A stretch of 64,000 nucleotides of DNA from Candidatus Zambryskiibacteriota bacterium (GCA_023267045.1 JAHFOB010000002.1:2032-66031), one strand, 5' to 3'; shown: positions 982 through 58,373, counted from the first letter of the stretch. Notes: generated by a model not told the origin, from the sequence alone. A program made the numbers and translations.

Positions 982-1004
982 TTTAAAAAGAAAAGGAGGT
1001 CGTC

Positions 1005-1045
1005 GTCCAAACGACAACCCCCAGTTTTTACTGCCACAGTTCAGA
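1005..1045. terminator. Bidirectional intrinsic terminator between dnaX (+) and ORF 1073..1423 (-)
   Basis: GGTCGTCGT/ACGACAACC hairpin flanked by A-runs upstream and a T-run downstream. Confidence 0.45.
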
Positions 1046-1072
1046 ATCGATTTCACTCCTAACCGATTCTGC

Positions 1073-1423
1073 CTAAGGCACTTTTTGCCGGTCTTTCGTC
1101 TCCACTTCAGTGTACTTTCTCGTGGCTTGACCACAGATCGATTTTGTAAGCCAAAGCAGAAGTTCCACCAAGATCAGATCCCTTTCTTCCACTGATCTGG
1201 CAAATTCCGAAAGTTCTACCAGAGTTTCTTTCAGAAATCTGACTTCAGGAGCATGTTCGTTGACCGGTAGATGTTTGTCTTGCAGGAAAATGAGCAGTGC
1301 TCTGATCAGAGCATAATCAAACTCACTTTCACCATGGATTTCCTCAAGCCCCACTACTTTTGAGTTCAAGGAATCAAGTACGTCATCTCTTTTTGAATTT
1401 CGCTTGATCTGATCTTCATTCAT
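1073..1423 (-). CDS. hypothetical protein (116 aa)
   Basis: ORF with terminator hairpins on both sides; no recognisable family. Confidence 0.4.
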   Translation of the reverse strand: MNEDQIKRNSKRDDVLDSLNSKVVGLEEIHGESEFDYALIRALLIFLQDKHLPVNEHAPEVRFLKETLVELSEFARSVEERDLILVELLLWLTKSICGQATRKYTEVETKDRQKVP

Positions 1424-1486
1424 CTCTGCCTCCGAGTGGAATAGTAATGAAATACTATAAGTAAGTCAATCAGAATTAGAAGACAA

Positions 1487-1530
1487 AAGAAAAGGAGGCT
1501 ATCGTTTGCGCGATAACCTCCTGGTGTTTA
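1487..1530 (-). terminator. Intrinsic terminator for ORF 1528..1953
   Basis: AGGAGGCTATCG...CGATAACCTCCT 12-bp stem followed on the minus strand by TTTTCTTTTG. Confidence 0.5.
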
Positions 1531-2899: not shown

Positions 2900-2970
2900 T
2901 GGGAGATCGTCTAACGGTAGGACAGGAGCCTTTGAAGCTTCTAATCTAGGTCCGATTCCTAGTCTCCCAG
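2900..2970 (+). tRNA. tRNA-Gln (anticodon UUG)
   Basis: Hand-folded cloverleaf: acceptor TGGGAGA/TCTCCCA, D-arm GTCT-AACGGTA-GGAC, anticodon stem GGAGC/GCTTC with loop CTTTGAA (UUG), T-arm CTAGG-TCCGATT-CCTAG, discriminator G. Followed by hairpin CTTCGATTTT...AAAATCGAAG. Confidence 0.8.
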
Positions 2971-3172
2971 CACTTCGATTTTAATGAAATGAAAATCGAA
3001 GTCACTGAGGAGTGAAACGACGAAGTGTCTCTTACATTTTACATTTCAATTCGTGTTAAAATCTCAGTGTCTTCGACCAAGCCCATGTCTTATTTCACCT
3101 ACATTCTCCAATGTTCTGATAAATCTTTTTATGTTGATTGCATAAATAGTTTTGTTCAAGGTTTCGCCTTGA

Positions 3173-3436
3173 ACAAAATTTAGTAAGGTTGATCAAGATG
3201 TTTGGGATAGCATTGAAGCTGTCAGAACGGTTGGTAATATTGGAGCACACATGGAAAAGGATATAAACATCATTGTTGATGTTGAGCCAGAAGAAGCGCA
3301 GTTACTTATCAGTCTAATCGAACAATTGATAGATGAGTGGTATGTTACTCGTAATGCACGTAAAGAAAGAACTGCAAGTTTGAAAAATCTTGTAGAAATT
3401 AAAAAGAATCAAACAACTATTGAAGCTGGGGAATAA
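3173..3436 (+). pseudogene. Truncated C-terminal remnant of a DUF4145-like protein
   Basis: Frame open from the stop at 3170-3172: TKFSKVDQDVWDSIEAVRTVGNIGAHMEKDINIIVDVEPEEAQLLISLIEQLIDEWY. There is no start codon before 3251. Sits downstream of tRNA-Gln. Confidence 0.4.
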
Positions 3437-3506
3437 GCTATACTTAGAGCCATAGCTGTTCCTATATCCAACCAAACTGTCAGCAATGTGAATAAAGAAT
3501 ACTCTC

Positions 3507-4696: not shown

Positions 4697-5056
4697 ATGT
4701 CAATTCCACTTCCAATGCCAAAGAGGGTTCCGGAAACTGGCCTCTACTACCACTACAAGCATGACCCAACTGGCACAGTCAACAACTACGCCTATGAAGT
4801 AGTCGGAGTTGGTTTTCACACAGAGGATAACTGTCGTCCTGGGGAACGGCATTTTCTGGTCTATCGTCCCTTGTACGAATCCAGGGAATATCGATTTTCA
4901 AAGTACGGAGGAATCCCTTGTTTTTACAGTAGGCCACTTGCAATGTGGATGGGAGAAGTGGAAAAGGACGGACAAGTTGTTCCGCGCTTCCAGAAAATCA
5001 CTGACCCAAAGGTTATCCGGAAACTGAAAAGAATCCGGAACAAGATGTACCCATGA
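4697..5056 (+). CDS. DUF1653 domain protein
   Basis: GLYYHYKHDPTGTVNNYAYEVVGVGFHTE resembles the DUF1653 core (YrHYKG..Y.V). Strong SD GAGAAGGAGATATATATG. Confidence 0.55.
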   Translation: MSIPLPMPKRVPETGLYYHYKHDPTGTVNNYAYEVVGVGFHTEDNCRPGERHFLVYRPLYESREYRFSKYGGIPCFYSRPLAMWMGEVEKDGQVVPRFQKITDPKVIRKLKRIRNKMYP

Positions 5057-5062
5057 CCGCCC

Positions 5063-5096
5063 AAGAGCCACCGTGCTTTTGGGTGGCTTTTGTTTA
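5063..5096 (+). terminator. Intrinsic terminator
   Basis: AGCCACC-gtgcttttg-GGTGGCT followed by TTTTGTTT. Confidence 0.5.
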
Positions 5097-5148
5097 TAAA
5101 ATAAAAGAGGATATCAACAGTTTATACACTTATCCACATCTAGAACAT

Positions 5149-5176
5149 TTGACATAAAATTTTTAGGGTATATACT
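5149..5176 (+). promoter_or_regulatory. Sigma70-like promoter (TTGACA, 16 bp, TATACT)
   Basis: TTGACAtaaaatttttagggtaTATACT. No ORF lies downstream. Confidence 0.35.
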
Positions 5177-5182
5177 CTTCGT

Positions 5183-5711
5183 CAGAGAGTTCGAAGGGTA
5201 CTAAAGGCTGTACTGGATTAGAGGATGAGAAGGAATATCTTATTCTTGGGTTAAAAGCCAATAATTCAGTGGGAGAGAAATCTTCCTTCAAAAGGTTCGC
5301 TGAAAGGCGGATCCCAAATACGAACAGTCATACGTATCATTGACCGACCTAATAATTGTGCAGGCAGGGGCAATCTCCGAATCCAAAGAGATTCTTGTCG
5401 GCACAAATGTCGTCTGGTGACGCGGGTAAGGATAAATCGCGTTAGGTTCAAAGCCACCAGAAGGCTAGGGAAGTTGATTCCACATCCTTGGATTACCGAA
5501 GGCGAATTCAATCGTCGAGGTAAAAATGGGTATCTGTGGGTGTTTAACAGAACAGCCACGTAGGTGCGACTGCATCAGGAAGATGGGGAAACTCACACAA
5601 TTTAGGTATGAAAGGTCTAACGACTGATCTGCCCAAATTGGGTGTATAACCCACTTCCTGATCTGAGCTAAGATCTGCGCACTCCGCGACGAAAAATCCG
5701 GGGTGTTTTTT
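5183..5711 (+). ncRNA. Candidate structured ncRNA; RNase P RNA is the leading hypothesis, identity not established
   Basis: About 530 nt with no credible ORF, visibly GC-richer than the flanks, between a consensus promoter and an intrinsic terminator.
- Many stable hairpins: TCTGGTG[ACGCG-GGTAAGGATAAAT-CGCGT...]CACCAGA; GAAGGAA...TTCCTTC; AATCTC...GAGATT.
- RNase P-like motifs: AAAG-GCUGU (5207) can pair with ACAGAA-CAGCC (5546), as in P4/J18-2.
- GGUG...CCACC-AGAAGGCUAGGGAAG resembles the P11/J11-12 consensus (CCACC.GGAGCAAGGCCAAAUAGG). Confidence 0.35.
5677..5711 (+). terminator. Intrinsic terminator (plus-strand)
   Basis: CACTCCG-cgacgaaaaatc-CGGGGTG, 7 bp including a G-U pair, followed by TTTTTT. 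Confidence 0.55.
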
Positions 5712-5727
5712 GTATCAGTTTATTTTT

Positions 5728-6627
5728 TTACTTAAAAAATTCCATAAATTTCATCGGGTCGATTGAGACTCCGTTTAGTCTGATACTCAAATGCAGATGT
5801 GGAGCGTCTGTGTAGCCAGTTTGACCAGAAAGTCCGATAATTTGCCCCGGTAAAACAAGTTCACCAACATTTACTTTTATTTTGGAGAGATGAAGGTAGA
5901 ACGTTTGCAATCCCAATCCGTGGTCGACAACGATCGTTTTGCCATAAGAAATACCAGTCCGAGCAATCCGAACAACTCCACGATTCATGGCCATGACAGG
6001 AGTGCCTTCGCTCGCTCTGAAGTCCGTGCCTTTGTGTGGGATAGTATATGCGCCAGTTTCGCGAGAATATCCATATGGGTCCGTCACGAAAATTTGTGAA
6101 AGAGGGAAGTGAAATGATTCTGTCCAAAAAGCTTTTTTGCCAGTGTACAGGTTGTTCAGTGTCGAATTTTCCGTCGCCAACACTGCGATCAAATTATTCT
6201 GACTTGCAGTTGTATTTCCGCCAAGTTTTTCTGGTATGCCGAGTGGTTCCTCGACTTTTTCTCTTTCTAAAACGGTAATAACTTTTTCTAGCGTTTGTCC
6301 GTTTGTTAATTTTACCTTCAGATTATAGTTCCCGGGTTTTTTACGAAGATCAACACCAATAAAAGCTGTGACTTTTTTGCCTGCCCCGTTGGAAGCTTGC
6401 TTTCCTTCGGGGCTGTACAAAAACACTGGCACATGAATGCCATCAAAAGTTATTTCTTTCACTTCAGAAATCTTTGTTAATCCAACCACGGTAATCATCA
6501 CAGGATCACCCCGCTGTATTTTTTCAGGAAAAGTAATCAGTGTAGGAGAAACAGCCCAAGTTATATTTGGGGTTAAAAAAGTTATACAAAATATCAAAAC
6601 AAAACCAAGCTTGAGCACTTTATTCAT
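5728..6627 (-). CDS. M23 family metallopeptidase (LytM-like) with a signal peptide
   Basis: HKGTDF...HxxxD and YLHLSKI...HLHLSI (HxH) motifs; N-terminal hydrophobic signal. Confidence 0.85.
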   Translation of the reverse strand: MNKVLKLGFVLIFCITFLTPNITWAVSPTLITFPEKIQRGDPVMITVVGLTKISEVKEITFDGIHVPVFLYSPEGKQASNGAGKKVTAFIGVDLRKKPGNYNLKVKLTNGQTLEKVITVLEREKVEEPLGIPEKLGGNTTASQNNLIAVLATENSTLNNLYTGKKAFWTESFHFPLSQIFVTDPYGYSRETGAYTIPHKGTDFRASEGTPVMAMNRGVVRIARTGISYGKTIVVDHGLGLQTFYLHLSKIKVNVGELVLPGQIIGLSGQTGYTDAPHLHLSIRLNGVSIDPMKFMEFFK

Positions 6628-46176: not shown

Positions 46177-46192
46177 CTGTCTACTGTTTCTG

Positions 46193-46265
46193 TGGACCCT
46201 GCCGGATTCGGACCGGCGACCTCCGCATTGCAAATGCGGCGCTCTACCAACTAAGCTAAGGGCCC
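46193..46265 (-). tRNA. tRNA-Ala (anticodon UGC), intact, carried inside the island
   Basis: Reverse complement reads GGGCCCTTAGCTTAGTTGGTAGAGCGCCGCATTTGCAATGCGGAGGTCGCCGGTCCGAATCCGGCAGGGTCCA. G3:U70 acceptor pair; anticodon stem CCGCA/TGCGG with loop TTTGCAA. Confidence 0.85.
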
Positions 46266-47928: not shown

Positions 47929-47957
47929 TTGACAGTATAGGTAAAAAGGTGTATAAT
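47929..47957 (+). promoter_or_regulatory. Consensus sigma70 promoter for 48036..48887
   Basis: TTGACAgtataggtaaaaaggtgTATAAT (17-bp spacer); SD CAAGGAGTAAGGAAATG further downstream. Confidence 0.6.
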
Positions 47958-48035: not shown

Positions 48036-48887
48036 ATGAAGATTCTCGCAGAAGCTGATACGGCACAGGTTCTTACTGGTCTGTTCCATCAGATCGGTGA
48101 CCAGAACTGCTACGTCGTGCAGATGGAACAAAGACGAGACACGTACGATACGTTGCAAAACGTGTCAGGACTCGACCTCGTTCTCAACGTCGCTCCGGAA
48201 GGTACACCCGTCGTCATGCTTGGATGGATGACGCCGAAAATGTATACCGACCTCAAGCCACAGGAGTGGTTCGCAGCGATGGGCTACCCGAACGTGATGT
48301 TCCGTCGCCTACCGGCAACACTGGAAGACGTTGTGAGTGCGCTTGAAGAAGTGAAGATTGGCAGTCGCCAGTCAGATCCTCTTGCAATTGCACTTCTCGG
48401 CGTCGATCAGATGAACTCGACTGTCAGAGTCCTTAACCACGATCTTTTGTCCGCTGAACGAGATTCAGAGCGGATGATTCGATGGGTTGAGCGAGCTCGG
48501 GCAGCATTCGGCGACAAGCCCCAAGCCGAACTGATTTCCTTGGTGAAAGATGCCGGGAAATTGGGAGGTCTTCCTGGTCCACTCACGGGTCAAATGTTCC
48601 CTGATGTCTGCGTGGATGTCGAGGGGACACTTCTGGTCGACGGGCAGATTCGTTCCGAAGTTATCGCTTTGGCACAAGAGAAAGCGAACGGCGGACCGAT
48701 CACTGTTTGGACTGGTGGGAACATCTACGACCTTACCAAGCAACTTCGTGGTTTGGGAGTGACCCACAAGATTACCTCCAAGCACACCATGAAGGATGCG
48801 ACTGTTCGAGTGGTGATCGACGACCAGCCGGAAGAAGCGTTCAAGAGCAACTACGGCGTCGGTTACGAAAAGTACATTCAGATCTAG
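48036..48887 (+). CDS. hypothetical protein, strongly GC-rich, with a possible C-terminal HAD-like phosphatase motif
   Basis: GC visibly ~55%. VCVDVEGTLLVDGQ resembles HAD motif I (DxDGT) and VVIDDQPEE motif IV; the N-terminal 170 aa are unknown. Followed by a bidirectional terminator (AGCCCCA...TGGGGCT, TTTTT). Confidence 0.45.
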   Translation: MKILAEADTAQVLTGLFHQIGDQNCYVVQMEQRRDTYDTLQNVSGLDLVLNVAPEGTPVVMLGWMTPKMYTDLKPQEWFAAMGYPNVMFRRLPATLEDVVSALEEVKIGSRQSDPLAIALLGVDQMNSTVRVLNHDLLSAERDSERMIRWVERARAAFGDKPQAELISLVKDAGKLGGLPGPLTGQMFPDVCVDVEGTLLVDGQIRSEVIALAQEKANGGPITVWTGGNIYDLTKQLRGLGVTHKITSKHTMKDATVRVVIDDQPEEAFKSNYGVGYEKYIQI

Positions 48888-56740: not shown

Positions 56741-57748
56741 TTGGTAAATGAGACATACATGCGAACTAAAAAGAAGGATGTAGCTGTTATCCAAAAAGAT
56801 CCGCTGAATTCGCTAAATCCAGATCGTCTGGATGAGCTTTTTGATCAGTTTATGACGGAAAAGAAATATGTGACACTACTTCGCCCTGCTACCTTGATTG
56901 GGTATAGAGCATCGTATGACCTTTTTAGAAAACTCTCGTATGTCACAATTGATTCACTCACCACAAAATCGCTGACTAATTTTTTCAAGGAGATGCAAAC
57001 CAGAACTAGAATTGTTGGTAAGGGGGTTGAGAAAATTGGTGTTAAGGATTCAACCATAGCAACATATGCTATGAAGCTTAATGTATTTTTTGAGTGGTTA
57101 GTTCAAGAAAAACATATCATTGAAAATCCAATCAAAAAATTGCCAAAATACAGACCAGTCTATGATGACAAAAGAGCCTTACGCAAAGGAGATATCGAAT
57201 ATATCAGAACAGCAATTGAAAACCACTCCACTACTTTGCTACAAAAGAAGAGAGATCAAACGATGCTCGCTGTACTTCTGTTTTGTGGGATAAGAAGAGG
57301 AGAACTACTTGGCTTGAAAGTGACTGATATCGACCTGGAAAAAAGGCAACTGATAATTAGAGGCGAAACATCGAAATCAAAGCGTACGAAAATTTTACCG
57401 ATTACCAATAAAATATTAGCAATGGCTTTACAAGATTATTTGAATGAGAGAAAAAATTACAAAACTCCGCAATTATTTGTTTCGTTAAATACTGACAAAG
57501 GACTAAGCTACGAAGGATTCAAACATTGGATTGACAGGTTGGAACTATTGTCTGGTGTAAAATTTCATTCGCATCGATTTCGTCATACCTTTGCTACAAA
57601 TCTTGAAGCTAACGATGTTGGCATTATAAAGATTTCAAAACTTATGGGTCATAAAGATACAAGAATGACTCAAGTGTATCTTCGCTCGATGGGATCAGAG
57701 GACTTAGGACCAGAGATGAGTACCCTGACATTTGACAACTTGATATAA
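56741..57748 (+). CDS. tyrosine-type site-specific recombinase/integrase (int2), reading toward the right junction
   Basis: HSHRFRHTFATNLEANDVGIIKISKLMGHKDTRMTQVYL catalytic motif. Confidence 0.85.
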   Translation: MVNETYMRTKKKDVAVIQKDPLNSLNPDRLDELFDQFMTEKKYVTLLRPATLIGYRASYDLFRKLSYVTIDSLTTKSLTNFFKEMQTRTRIVGKGVEKIGVKDSTIATYAMKLNVFFEWLVQEKHIIENPIKKLPKYRPVYDDKRALRKGDIEYIRTAIENHSTTLLQKKRDQTMLAVLLFCGIRRGELLGLKVTDIDLEKRQLIIRGETSKSKRTKILPITNKILAMALQDYLNERKNYKTPQLFVSLNTDKGLSYEGFKHWIDRLELLSGVKFHSHRFRHTFATNLEANDVGIIKISKLMGHKDTRMTQVYLRSMGSEDLGPEMSTLTFDNLI

Positions 57749-57930
57749 GTCTAATTTTTTAATATAATATGAGCACATTATTAGTTAATTTGCAGTCTGT
57801 TGTTGTAAATATTTCATGGACTTTCCTAGGTAGGAAACAGGTCATTGCAACGGTATGAATTTAAGGAACCAAATCACAATTTTACCGCTTAAATAAAGGA
57901 TATTTCAAGAGAAATAGGGGTACTAGTTTC

Positions 57931-57972
57931 TTTGCAATGAGGGGGTGGCAGGTTCGAGTCCTGTAGGGTCCA
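57931..57972 (+). other. Right junction (attR-like): 3' part of the disrupted tRNA-Ala gene, beginning with the core TTTGCAAT
   Basis: TTTGCAATGAGGGGGTGGCAGGTTCGAGTCCTGTAGGGTCCA gives the 3' anticodon stem, variable loop, T-arm GCAGG-TTCGAGT-CCTGT and acceptor AGGGTCC-A. Confidence 0.75.
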
Positions 57973-57984
57973 CTGACAACACAA

Positions 57985-58010
57985 ACTATCCCGCCTGCGC
58001 GGGATTTTGT
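57985..58010 (+). terminator. Terminator of the ancestral tRNA-Ala gene
   Basis: CCCGCctgcGCGGG followed by ATTTTGTG. Confidence 0.45.
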
Positions 58011-58373
58011 GCGTCAGTGGAAGACAGAGTCATGTTTTTATACCAATAAAAACGGACGAGTCAGGGTCGTGGAAATTTTGTTTTGACGAAAATAAAATTA
58101 TTCCTGACCACAAAATGTATTAGGAAAATAGTGGCTGACCCCATTTTCCCTGACCCCATTTTCCCCATCTTCTAAATAAATCATTGCTATGGTATTGTTT
58201 TGTTACAACTAAATAAGTTAAAGTAGCCTAAACCAAGTAATTGGCATGGTGAAAAGCCCAGTAACGAATAAAAAACCCATCATGCGGGCTTGTCGTTACT
58301 GGCCATATCGGGAAACCGGTATGGGGAGCTTCGGCTCCCACCCTGTGGTGGGCTTTTTGTATAAATAAAAAAT

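Follow-up and report, generated by a model that had tools for sequence, protein, structure and literature searches.

A candidate gene for a large structured noncoding RNA between convergent genes of a Patescibacteria genome

Locus and transcription signals

The DNA analyzed here is a stretch of 64,000 nt from Candidatus Zambryskiibacteriota bacterium (GCA_023267045.1), referred to below as the window, and the host genome belongs to the Patescibacteria (candidate phyla radiation, CPR). An intergenic gap of 671 nt separates two convergent genes of the window, a DUF1653 gene with its stop at 5056 and a minus-strand M23 peptidase gene with its stop at 5728. The gap contains a candidate gene for a large structured noncoding RNA (ncRNA), delimited by the following elements.

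5149-5176 (+): sigma-70-type promoter, with the -35 element TTGACA at 5149-5154, a 16-nt spacer and the -10 element TATACT at 5171-5176; 11 of 12 consensus positions matched
5183-5711 (+): predicted primary transcript of about 529 nt, noncoding and highly structured
5679-5711 (+): intrinsic terminator, a G+C-rich stem GCACUCCGCGA/UCCGGGGUGU at 5679-5706 followed by U6

An initial annotation of the locus had proposed a structured RNA gene free of open reading frames (ORFs), running from a consensus-like promoter (TTGACA-16-TATACT at 5149-5176) to an intrinsic terminator at 5677-5711, and both signals were confirmed. The promoter was one of five sites in the whole 64 kb that match the consensus at 11 or more of 12 positions, all of them on the plus strand. 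The terminator stretch 5677-5712 showed a folding energy of -12.2 kcal/mol; the 5679-5711 terminator was not called by the terminator scan and was identified from the fold and the U6. Transcription from this promoter would start near 5183, and the hairpin with its U6 would stop it at about 5711. The U run lies 3' of the hairpin on the plus strand but not on the minus strand, so that promoter and terminator mark one plus-strand unit. A strong terminator at 5057-5086 belongs to the upstream DUF1653 gene, and the RNA region is therefore a separate unit. Elsewhere in the window, a perfect sigma-70 promoter (TTGACA-17-TATAAT, 12 of 12) was observed at 47929-47957 (+), upstream of the gene at 48036-48887.

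Coding potential

Stops broke all six frames of the region under code 11, and an alternative genetic code with UGA as sense was rejected because stops persisted in every frame under code 4 as well. The longest ORF, of 97 aa, was arginine-rich and lay on the minus strand. A six-frame pseudo-protein assembled from all open stretches of at least 22 codons had no match at E<=1 among 2,964 word-sharing candidates from a collection of 5.8 billion sequences, and the longest plus-strand frame had no match in 1.84 billion representatives searched exhaustively with HMMER. The absence of a protein-like ORF, as initially described, was thus upheld both by the stops in six frames and by the lack of protein similarity. 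The negative results from the protein collections also argue against a pseudogene.

Folding strength

The plus strand of the predicted transcript gave a minimum free energy (MFE) of -179.9 kcal/mol, corresponding to a z-score of -5.66 against 100 dinucleotide shuffles and of -6.6 in a control run with 30 shuffles, whereas the z-score of the minus strand was -1.87. As controls, 529-nt stretches were folded at intervals of 2.2 kb across the window on both strands (n=58). The control stretches had a mean z-score of -1.10 (sd 1.46), and the RNA region was the most extreme of all; the two strongest control stretches overlapped the RNA region, and the strongest independent one reached -4.19.

The predicted ensemble was also well defined. 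The positional entropy was 0.535, compared with 1.06 +/- 0.26 in shuffles and below the value of every one of the 60 shuffles, and the ensemble diversity was 63.9 against a shuffle mean of 129. Bases with a partner at p>0.9 made up 42% of the transcript, compared with 15% on average and at most 37% in 60 shuffles. In the predicted fold, 67% of the bases were paired and 30 of the 177 pairs were G-U, which accounts for the asymmetry between the plus and the minus strand. This asymmetry is consistent with how the promoter and the terminator are oriented. Another well-folding stretch of the window (982-1527, minus strand) was set aside, as it contains a 116-aa ORF.

The proposal of an ORF-free structured RNA gene extending from promoter to terminator was thus borne out by single-sequence evidence (fold z-scores of -5.7 to -6.6). 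The transcription signals, the strand-specific predicted folding, the defined ensemble and the noncoding frames support this reading together.

Predicted secondary structure

The anatomy of the RNA was derived from fold prediction on a single sequence, with pairing probabilities (p), and comprised the following elements.

5183-5192 with 5665-5677 (+): weak end-closing helix, joining the transcript ends
5197-5338 (+): 5' domain of 142 nt, closed by GGUAC/GUAUC and GGCUGU/ACAGUC, pairing p 0.92-0.98
5212-5270 (+): Y-shaped module A, with outer stem ACUGGAUUA/UAAUUCAGU, mini-hairpin GGUUAAAAGCC and, between them, no more than a hairpin of 10 bp whose loop is AGGAAUA
5356-5406 (+): long hairpin with loop CGAAUCCAAA
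5411-5463 (+): Y-shaped module B, with outer stem UCUGGU/ACCAGA, hairpin GACGCGG-GUAAGGAUAAA-UCGCGUU and mini-hairpin GGUUCAAAGCC
5466-5490 and 5493-5523 (+): two hairpins, p 0.64 for the first and 0.94-0.98 for the second
5536-5559 (+): hairpin GUGGGUGUUU-AACA-GAACAGCCAC, p 0.98, including ACAGAAC-AGCC, which had been likened to conserved region V (CR-V) and helix P4 of ribonuclease P (RNase P) RNA
5574-5662 (+): 3' hairpin domain of 89 nt, closed by AUCAGGAAG/CUUCCUGAU, p 0.96-0.99

The transcript would accordingly form a multi-branched body consisting of the end helix, the 5' domain, two Y-shaped three-way junctions, further hairpins and the 3' domain. The 5' domain contains module A and two GAAA-tetraloop hairpins (5271-5286 and 5294-5313), and its segment 5203-5211 is the AAAG-GCUGU that had been described as CR-I-like. 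In the loop of the long hairpin at 5356-5406, 7 nt are complementary to UUGGAUU (5488-5494), with which they may form a pseudoknot. Among the long perfect stems listed in the initial annotation, UCUGGUG/CACCAGA enclosing ACGCG-loop-CGCGU and AUCUC/GAGAU were recovered (p about 0.7-0.94), whereas GAAGGAA/UUCCUUC and AUACG/CGUAU, whose complementarity is real, lost to competing pairings in the predicted fold.

Modules A and B are paralogous in both sequence and predicted shape, each having an outer stem, a hairpin with an AGGAWWA loop, one purine and a mini-hairpin GGUUMAAAGCC. The mini-hairpin GGUUCAAAGCC of module B fits the T-loop consensus of tRNA, G-UUCRANN-C (G53-U-U-C-R-A-N-N-C61), and the loops neighboring the T-loop-like mini-hairpins carry GG. 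A loop-loop contact like that of the tRNA elbow is conceivable between the T-loop-like and the GG loops, and the two modules could in this way present tRNA-elbow-like surfaces.

A separate observation concerns the 5' segment GGUACUAAAGGCUGU (5197-5211), for which two sets of partners exist, one nested at 5324-5338 (ACAGUC...GUAUC) and one pseudoknotted at 5530-5557 (GUAUCU...ACAGCC). Within this segment, 5206-5211 would pair with 5324-5329 in the nested form and with 5552-5557 in the P4-like pseudoknot. Both partner regions have the motif GAACAG[U/C]CA..CGUA in common. The doubled partners could have arisen by chance or by internal duplication, or could act as a conformational switch.

Comparison with known large RNAs and proposed role

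Bacterial ncRNAs longer than about 400 nt are few, and those studied are nearly all ribozymes or machines made of RNA or ribonucleoprotein (RNP), such as RNase P, transfer-messenger RNA (tmRNA), OLE, ROOL and GOLLD. Patescibacteria genomes are minimal, and their housekeeping RNAs are known as aberrant. When all 4227 models of Rfam 15 were scanned, neither at the gathering score nor at E<=10 was there a match for signal recognition particle (SRP) RNA, 6S RNA, tmRNA, OLE, ROOL, GOLLD, raiA, HEARO, introns or ribozymes, and the matches on the RNA region at E 4-10 were noise alone (FTX_2, U4). With slightly better than even confidence, the locus is read as a gene standing on its own, whose product would be a large structured ncRNA of about 525 nt that is restricted to the lineage and represents an undescribed family. 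"Another large ncRNA", given in the initial annotation as a fallback, is the reading that the evidence favors.

Among the closest known counterparts are OLE, ROOL and GOLLD (Weinberg et al. 2017, PMC5737381; Kretsch et al. 2025, PMC12286853). Like these, the candidate would have its own transcription unit and is predicted to be noncoding and multi-branched with GNRA tetraloops and repeated sub-modules; its length falls in the 500-600 nt range of ROOL and OLE, and it lies near a tRNA gene, as ROOL and GOLLD often do. In contrast to them, it matches none of their Rfam models, its host is a member of the Patescibacteria and no prophage genes surround it. Moreover, those families rest on hundreds of covarying sequences, whereas the candidate is a single sequence.

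The transcript would most likely act through its folded shape, as a protein-binding scaffold, an RNP core or a self-contained machine like OLE, ROOL and GOLLD; antisense pairing to mRNAs would be less likely. If real, a new large ncRNA of the Patescibacteria would be a good target for structure determination and might bear on the tRNA biology of Patescibacteria episymbionts. As the RNA is an orphan of a single organism, this importance is potential rather than demonstrated.

Search for relatives

Several results weigh against a functional RNA gene, beginning with the fact that the case rests on one sequence in one organism, in which transcription itself is inferred. No homolog was found in genome, metagenome, viral or protein collections; the large DNA collections were scanned by exact patterns and the lineage is thinly sampled, so that distant homologs could escape. 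Six degenerate 24-nt patterns retrieved no homolog from JGI metagenomes, blastn gave no match in phage genomes, and a covariance model of the 5' domain, run over 432 kb of fetched loci, returned only the self-match. In viral contigs, exact 16-17-mers gave chance matches only and six degenerate patterns gave nothing. A single nhmmer match (L043) was rejected, being located within a 419-aa ORF.

The structure-derived pattern AGGAWWA-N(4-14)-TTRGGTTMAAAGCCA occurred twice in the 64 kb, both times in the RNA region on the plus strand and in the same Y context; it was itself derived from the sequence of the RNA region, and the two matches do not constitute an independent test. In metagenomes the same pattern gave 24 matches, by rough estimate about the number expected by chance. 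Sixteen of these lay in open frames of more than 80 codons, and none of seven others that were folded gave a Y shape.

Relatives of the neighboring genes were equally unproductive. Fifteen relatives of the DUF1653 gene in GTDB genomes had neither the RNA nor a gap alongside, the M23 peptidase had relatives of no more than 62% identity, which stood in unrelated contexts with no RNA beside them, and relatives of a nearby 187-aa membrane-protein gene yielded no RNA. The closest relatives of the flanking and nearby genes were 60-72% identical, also in unrelated contexts. The relatives of the DUF1653 and M23 proteins all came from Patescibacteria, Saccharibacteria or Parcubacteria metagenome-assembled genomes, except for one bin labelled Nanoarchaeia. 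The RNA region was otherwise present only in identical contigs from independent assemblies of this organism (L016 and L063); the window corresponds to 64 kb of the 78.8-kb ENA contig (L063), from which it differed by one mismatch over the 17 kb compared. The candidate gene is unchanged in these assemblies, which was counted as stability in the population.

Acquired DNA as an alternative

The strongest competing explanation, which we regard as unlikely, is that the region is nonfunctional DNA, a decaying remnant of an acquired pseudogene or mobile-element fragment, whose signals and fold are leftover or coincidental. The base composition bears on this. The initial annotation had described the G+C (GC) content as clearly above that of the flanking DNA. 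It is indeed above the window mean (0.457 against 0.376, in the top 2.4% among 529-nt stretches), but not above the immediate flanks, as the DUF1653 gene and the 3' end of the M23 gene match it (0.45-0.49). The GC argument is weaker than initially stated because the adjoining coding DNA is equally GC-rich, and this too counts against an RNA gene; a GC closer to the DUF1653 gene than to the genome average fits a remnant. The location is also relevant, since the region follows one of the tRNA genes listed here.

2900-2971 (+): tRNA-Gln(UUG)
46192-46265 (-): tRNA-Ala(UGC)

Downstream of tRNA-Gln, the RNA region stands among accessory genes (TfoX_N, an EEP-family nuclease and DUF1653) whose relatives sit in unrelated contexts, and recently acquired DNA is conceivable there, a further point against the RNA gene. 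The lack of a homolog in any searched collection is likewise compatible with a remnant. On the other side, the six frames showed no protein similarity, no att-like repeats linked to the tRNA were found, and the neighboring genes gave no prophage or defense signal except the M23 peptidase, whose PHROGs match is through the peptidase domain alone. The strongest strand-specific fold and the best-defined ensemble of the window would be unexpected for a decayed gene, as would its exact bracketing by an 11/12 promoter and a terminator of the same orientation.

Further features of the surroundings were recorded. The DUF1653 gene (4697-5056, +) has a GC of about 0.47, like the RNA, and the genes upstream of it only 0.28-0.35; its relatives (at most 72% identity) occur in unrelated contexts in other Patescibacteria, which suggests that the gene is mobile. 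The gene table of the ENA contig (L063) lists no gene at its position. Matches in the defense libraries were limited to weak Cas2-like PADLOC hits of a PaaX-like protein (2178-2759, +), the central domain of which matches Cas2-like models (Pfam PaaX_M; weak PADLOC Cas2). No CRISPR array is present within the window, and no arrays or tandem repeats were found nearby.

Comparison with RNase P RNA

In CPR genomes, RNase P RNA was below the Rfam thresholds in 10 of 35 circularized genomes, with helices missing or extended (Lui et al. 2021, PMC8172020). Because such aberrant RNAs escape the thresholds, the suggestion that several segments of the region echo bacterial RNase P RNA was taken seriously. 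An extremely divergent RNase P RNA of the Patescibacteria would use AAAG-GGCUG (5203-5210) and ACAGAA-CAGCC (5547-5557) as the P4 pseudoknot and GGGUAC/GUAUCU (5196-5201 with 5530-5535) as P2; P3 would have been lost, and a hairpin domain added between P4 and P1. We consider this improbable.

Some observations favor this reading. A motif of AAAG plus 5 nt, with the complement of those 5 nt immediately after an ACAGAA that lies 100 nt or more downstream, was obtained in 43 of 200,000 dinucleotide shuffles, and this arrangement was unique to the RNA region within the window on both strands. The P4-like helix has the same register relative to AAAG and ACAGAA as in E. coli, and the P2-like helix has the expected crossing topology. 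GGCUGU(ACUG) at 5206-5215 is 90% complementary to CAGAACAGCC at 5548-5557. Freeing the P4 strands would cost 10.4 kcal/mol and the duplex would regain about 11, so that the pseudoknotted form is predicted to be energetically comparable to the MFE structure. The CPR precedent for altered, sub-threshold RNase P RNAs (PMC8172020) points the same way.

Nevertheless, the tests defined in advance, namely the covariance models, the rnpB alignment and the conserved-region chain, all failed. The RNase P models RF00010 and RF00011 gave nothing at the gathering score and nothing at E<=10 on 5050-5780 with permissive filters, a scan that would not list matches below roughly 10-15 bits, judging from the bits of matches at E 4-10. 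The cmscan check proposed with the RNase P assignment thus turned out negative. Local alignment to E. coli rnpB, the reference sequence of which was verified against 5,426 genomes, was no better than for shuffles when long gaps were made cheap (p 0.27-0.83). When CR-I to CR-V and J5/15 were placed in order, 66 of 118 positions were identical, compared with 63.9 +/- 2.0 in shuffles (p 0.21). GGUAAGGAUAAAU matches GGUAAGGGUGAAA at 10 of 13 positions by a hand count against the same reference; by a hand estimate, chance would give such a match in about 7% of cases in 530 nt.

The details of the motifs also differ from RNase P RNA in several respects. The CR-I site reads CUAAAGGCUGU; the canonical GGAAAGUCC is absent, and GGAAAGTCC has no match within 2 mismatches at 5198-5215. 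For CR-V, the region has ACAGAA and directly after it CAGCC, which complements GGCUG, but GCUUA/GGCUUA is absent and the A-U pairs of P4 cannot form. The helix with 5553-5557 would be a continuous 5-6 bp and lack the universally conserved bulged U of P4. Each of the two P4 strands is strongly paired nearby in the predicted fold (p 0.96 and 0.98), and the predicted interior is a row of closed independent hairpins in which the nested specificity domain of P5/P7-P12 is not seen. P1 to P3 do not fit, because only 20 nt lie between the putative start at 5183 and AAAG, and an interval of about 150 nt, which contains the 89-nt hairpin domain, separates 5557 from the terminator. The initial annotation had itself noted that the spacing differs from that of E. 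coli M1 RNA, and the stretch of about 150 nt beyond ACAGAA and the missing room for P3 agree with this. Finally, the P4-like pattern was specified after the sequence had been seen, and an accessory, island-like context without relatives would be odd for an essential RNA.

Among the echoes, only the AAAG/ACAGAA complementarity is rarer than chance; it was specified post hoc and faces competition from strong local pairings. With RNase P RNA of type A (RF00010, E. coli rnpB) the candidate has in common its character as a large, stand-alone, highly structured RNA gene, an AAAG/ACAGAA pair that mimics J3/4-P4-J2/4 in order and register, two adjacent GNRA hairpins and T-loop-like elements. It differs in having no model match and no colinear similarity beyond chance, in lacking P3, a bulged-U P4, GGCUUA and a nested specificity domain, and in its 150-nt 3' extension. 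Such motif echoes can seem persuasive yet were not upheld by the prespecified tests, which calls for caution.

A bolder form of the idea, for which we see a slim chance, is a rewired RNase P serving as the tRNA-processing ribozyme of the lineage, with the P2/P4 pseudoknot and the AAAG/ACAGAA joiners kept. Such an RNA would have lost P3 and the bulged U, its specificity domain would be replaced by the two T-loop Y modules, and a hairpin domain would lie between P4 and P1. The founder of a new family of ornate RNAs with duplicated tRNA-elbow-like modules would be likelier, and less startling.

tRNA-like RNAs and a small peptide

A diverged housekeeping or tRNA-related RNA (tmRNA, SRP RNA, 6S RNA or a tRNA-like RNA) is very improbable. 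Such an origin might be suggested by the T-loop-consensus mini-hairpins, which adjoin acceptor-like stems, and by at least two more structured stretches with T-arm-like hairpins on the same contig that Rfam does not recognize. However, ARAGORN found no tmRNA in the window and Rfam gave no match to any of these families at E<=10. Reading the sequence revealed neither a 3' CCA-type end nor an SRP domain IV motif, nor any tag frame with a resume codon, and the 530 nt exceed the size of all of these RNAs. The Y modules resemble tRNA-like domains, such as that of tmRNA and that of the YrlA Y RNA, in their acceptor-like stem, GG-loop hairpin and G-UUCAAAG-C loop of T-loop consensus. In contrast to those domains, the T stems of the candidate have only 2-3 bp, there is no 3' CCA, tag frame, or Ro or SmpB context, and both ARAGORN and Rfam are negative.

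Equally doubtful is an mRNA with a long structured leader for the 33-aa cysteine-rich peptide MGICGCLTEQPRRCDCIRKMGKLTQFRYERSND (5526-5627), whose ATG has GAGG 5 nt upstream and which shows a CxC...CxC pattern, because it has no Pfam match and no homolog, also as part of the six-frame query, sits within two strongly predicted hairpin domains and covers just 102 of about 530 nt.

Other RNAs on the contig

The 535 nt after tRNA-Gln (2972-3506) contain short ORFs only; one of 32 aa (3085-3183) is reminiscent of a GIY-YIG N-terminus and is without a Pfam match. The ORF-free stretch 57749-58373 carries at its 3' end a clear LOOT RNA (RF03000; 58225-58339, +), which scored 80.7 bits, compared with a gathering score of 46.4. 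The stem-loop and T run that follow this RNA are read as a terminator.

A second small transcription unit was observed at 57740-58012 (+). It begins with an 11/12 promoter (TTGATA-17-TATAAT at 57740). The next 200 nt or so end in the T-arm-like hairpin GCAGG-UUCGAGU-CCUGU and AGGGUCCA, which is also the 3' acceptor strand of tRNA-Ala in the window, and a terminator CCCGCCUGCGCGGG plus Us lies at 57988-58012. GGACUUU at 57819-57825 can pair with the acceptor-like 3' strand, and on the minus strand 57818-57826 matches GGAAAGTCC exactly, being complementary to GGACUUUCC in the unit. Neither ARAGORN nor Rfam made a call on it, and its fold z-score was -2.7. The unit might encode an unusual RNA of tRNA-like or tmRNA-like type, or contain a tRNA fragment that remained at an integration site.

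On the ENA contig, an ORF-free GC-rich stretch of about 330 nt lies between dus and dnaX (L063 17680-18020, minus strand), about 0.5-0.8 kb left of window position 1. It had no Rfam match at E<=10 and no ARAGORN call. The stretch has a fold z-score of -3.6, a long perfect hairpin, a terminator and a T-arm-like hairpin CAGAG-UUCGAAAA-CUCUG, followed by ...GGGUCACACCA. Several candidate RNAs not recognized by Rfam thus seem to be present in this genome.

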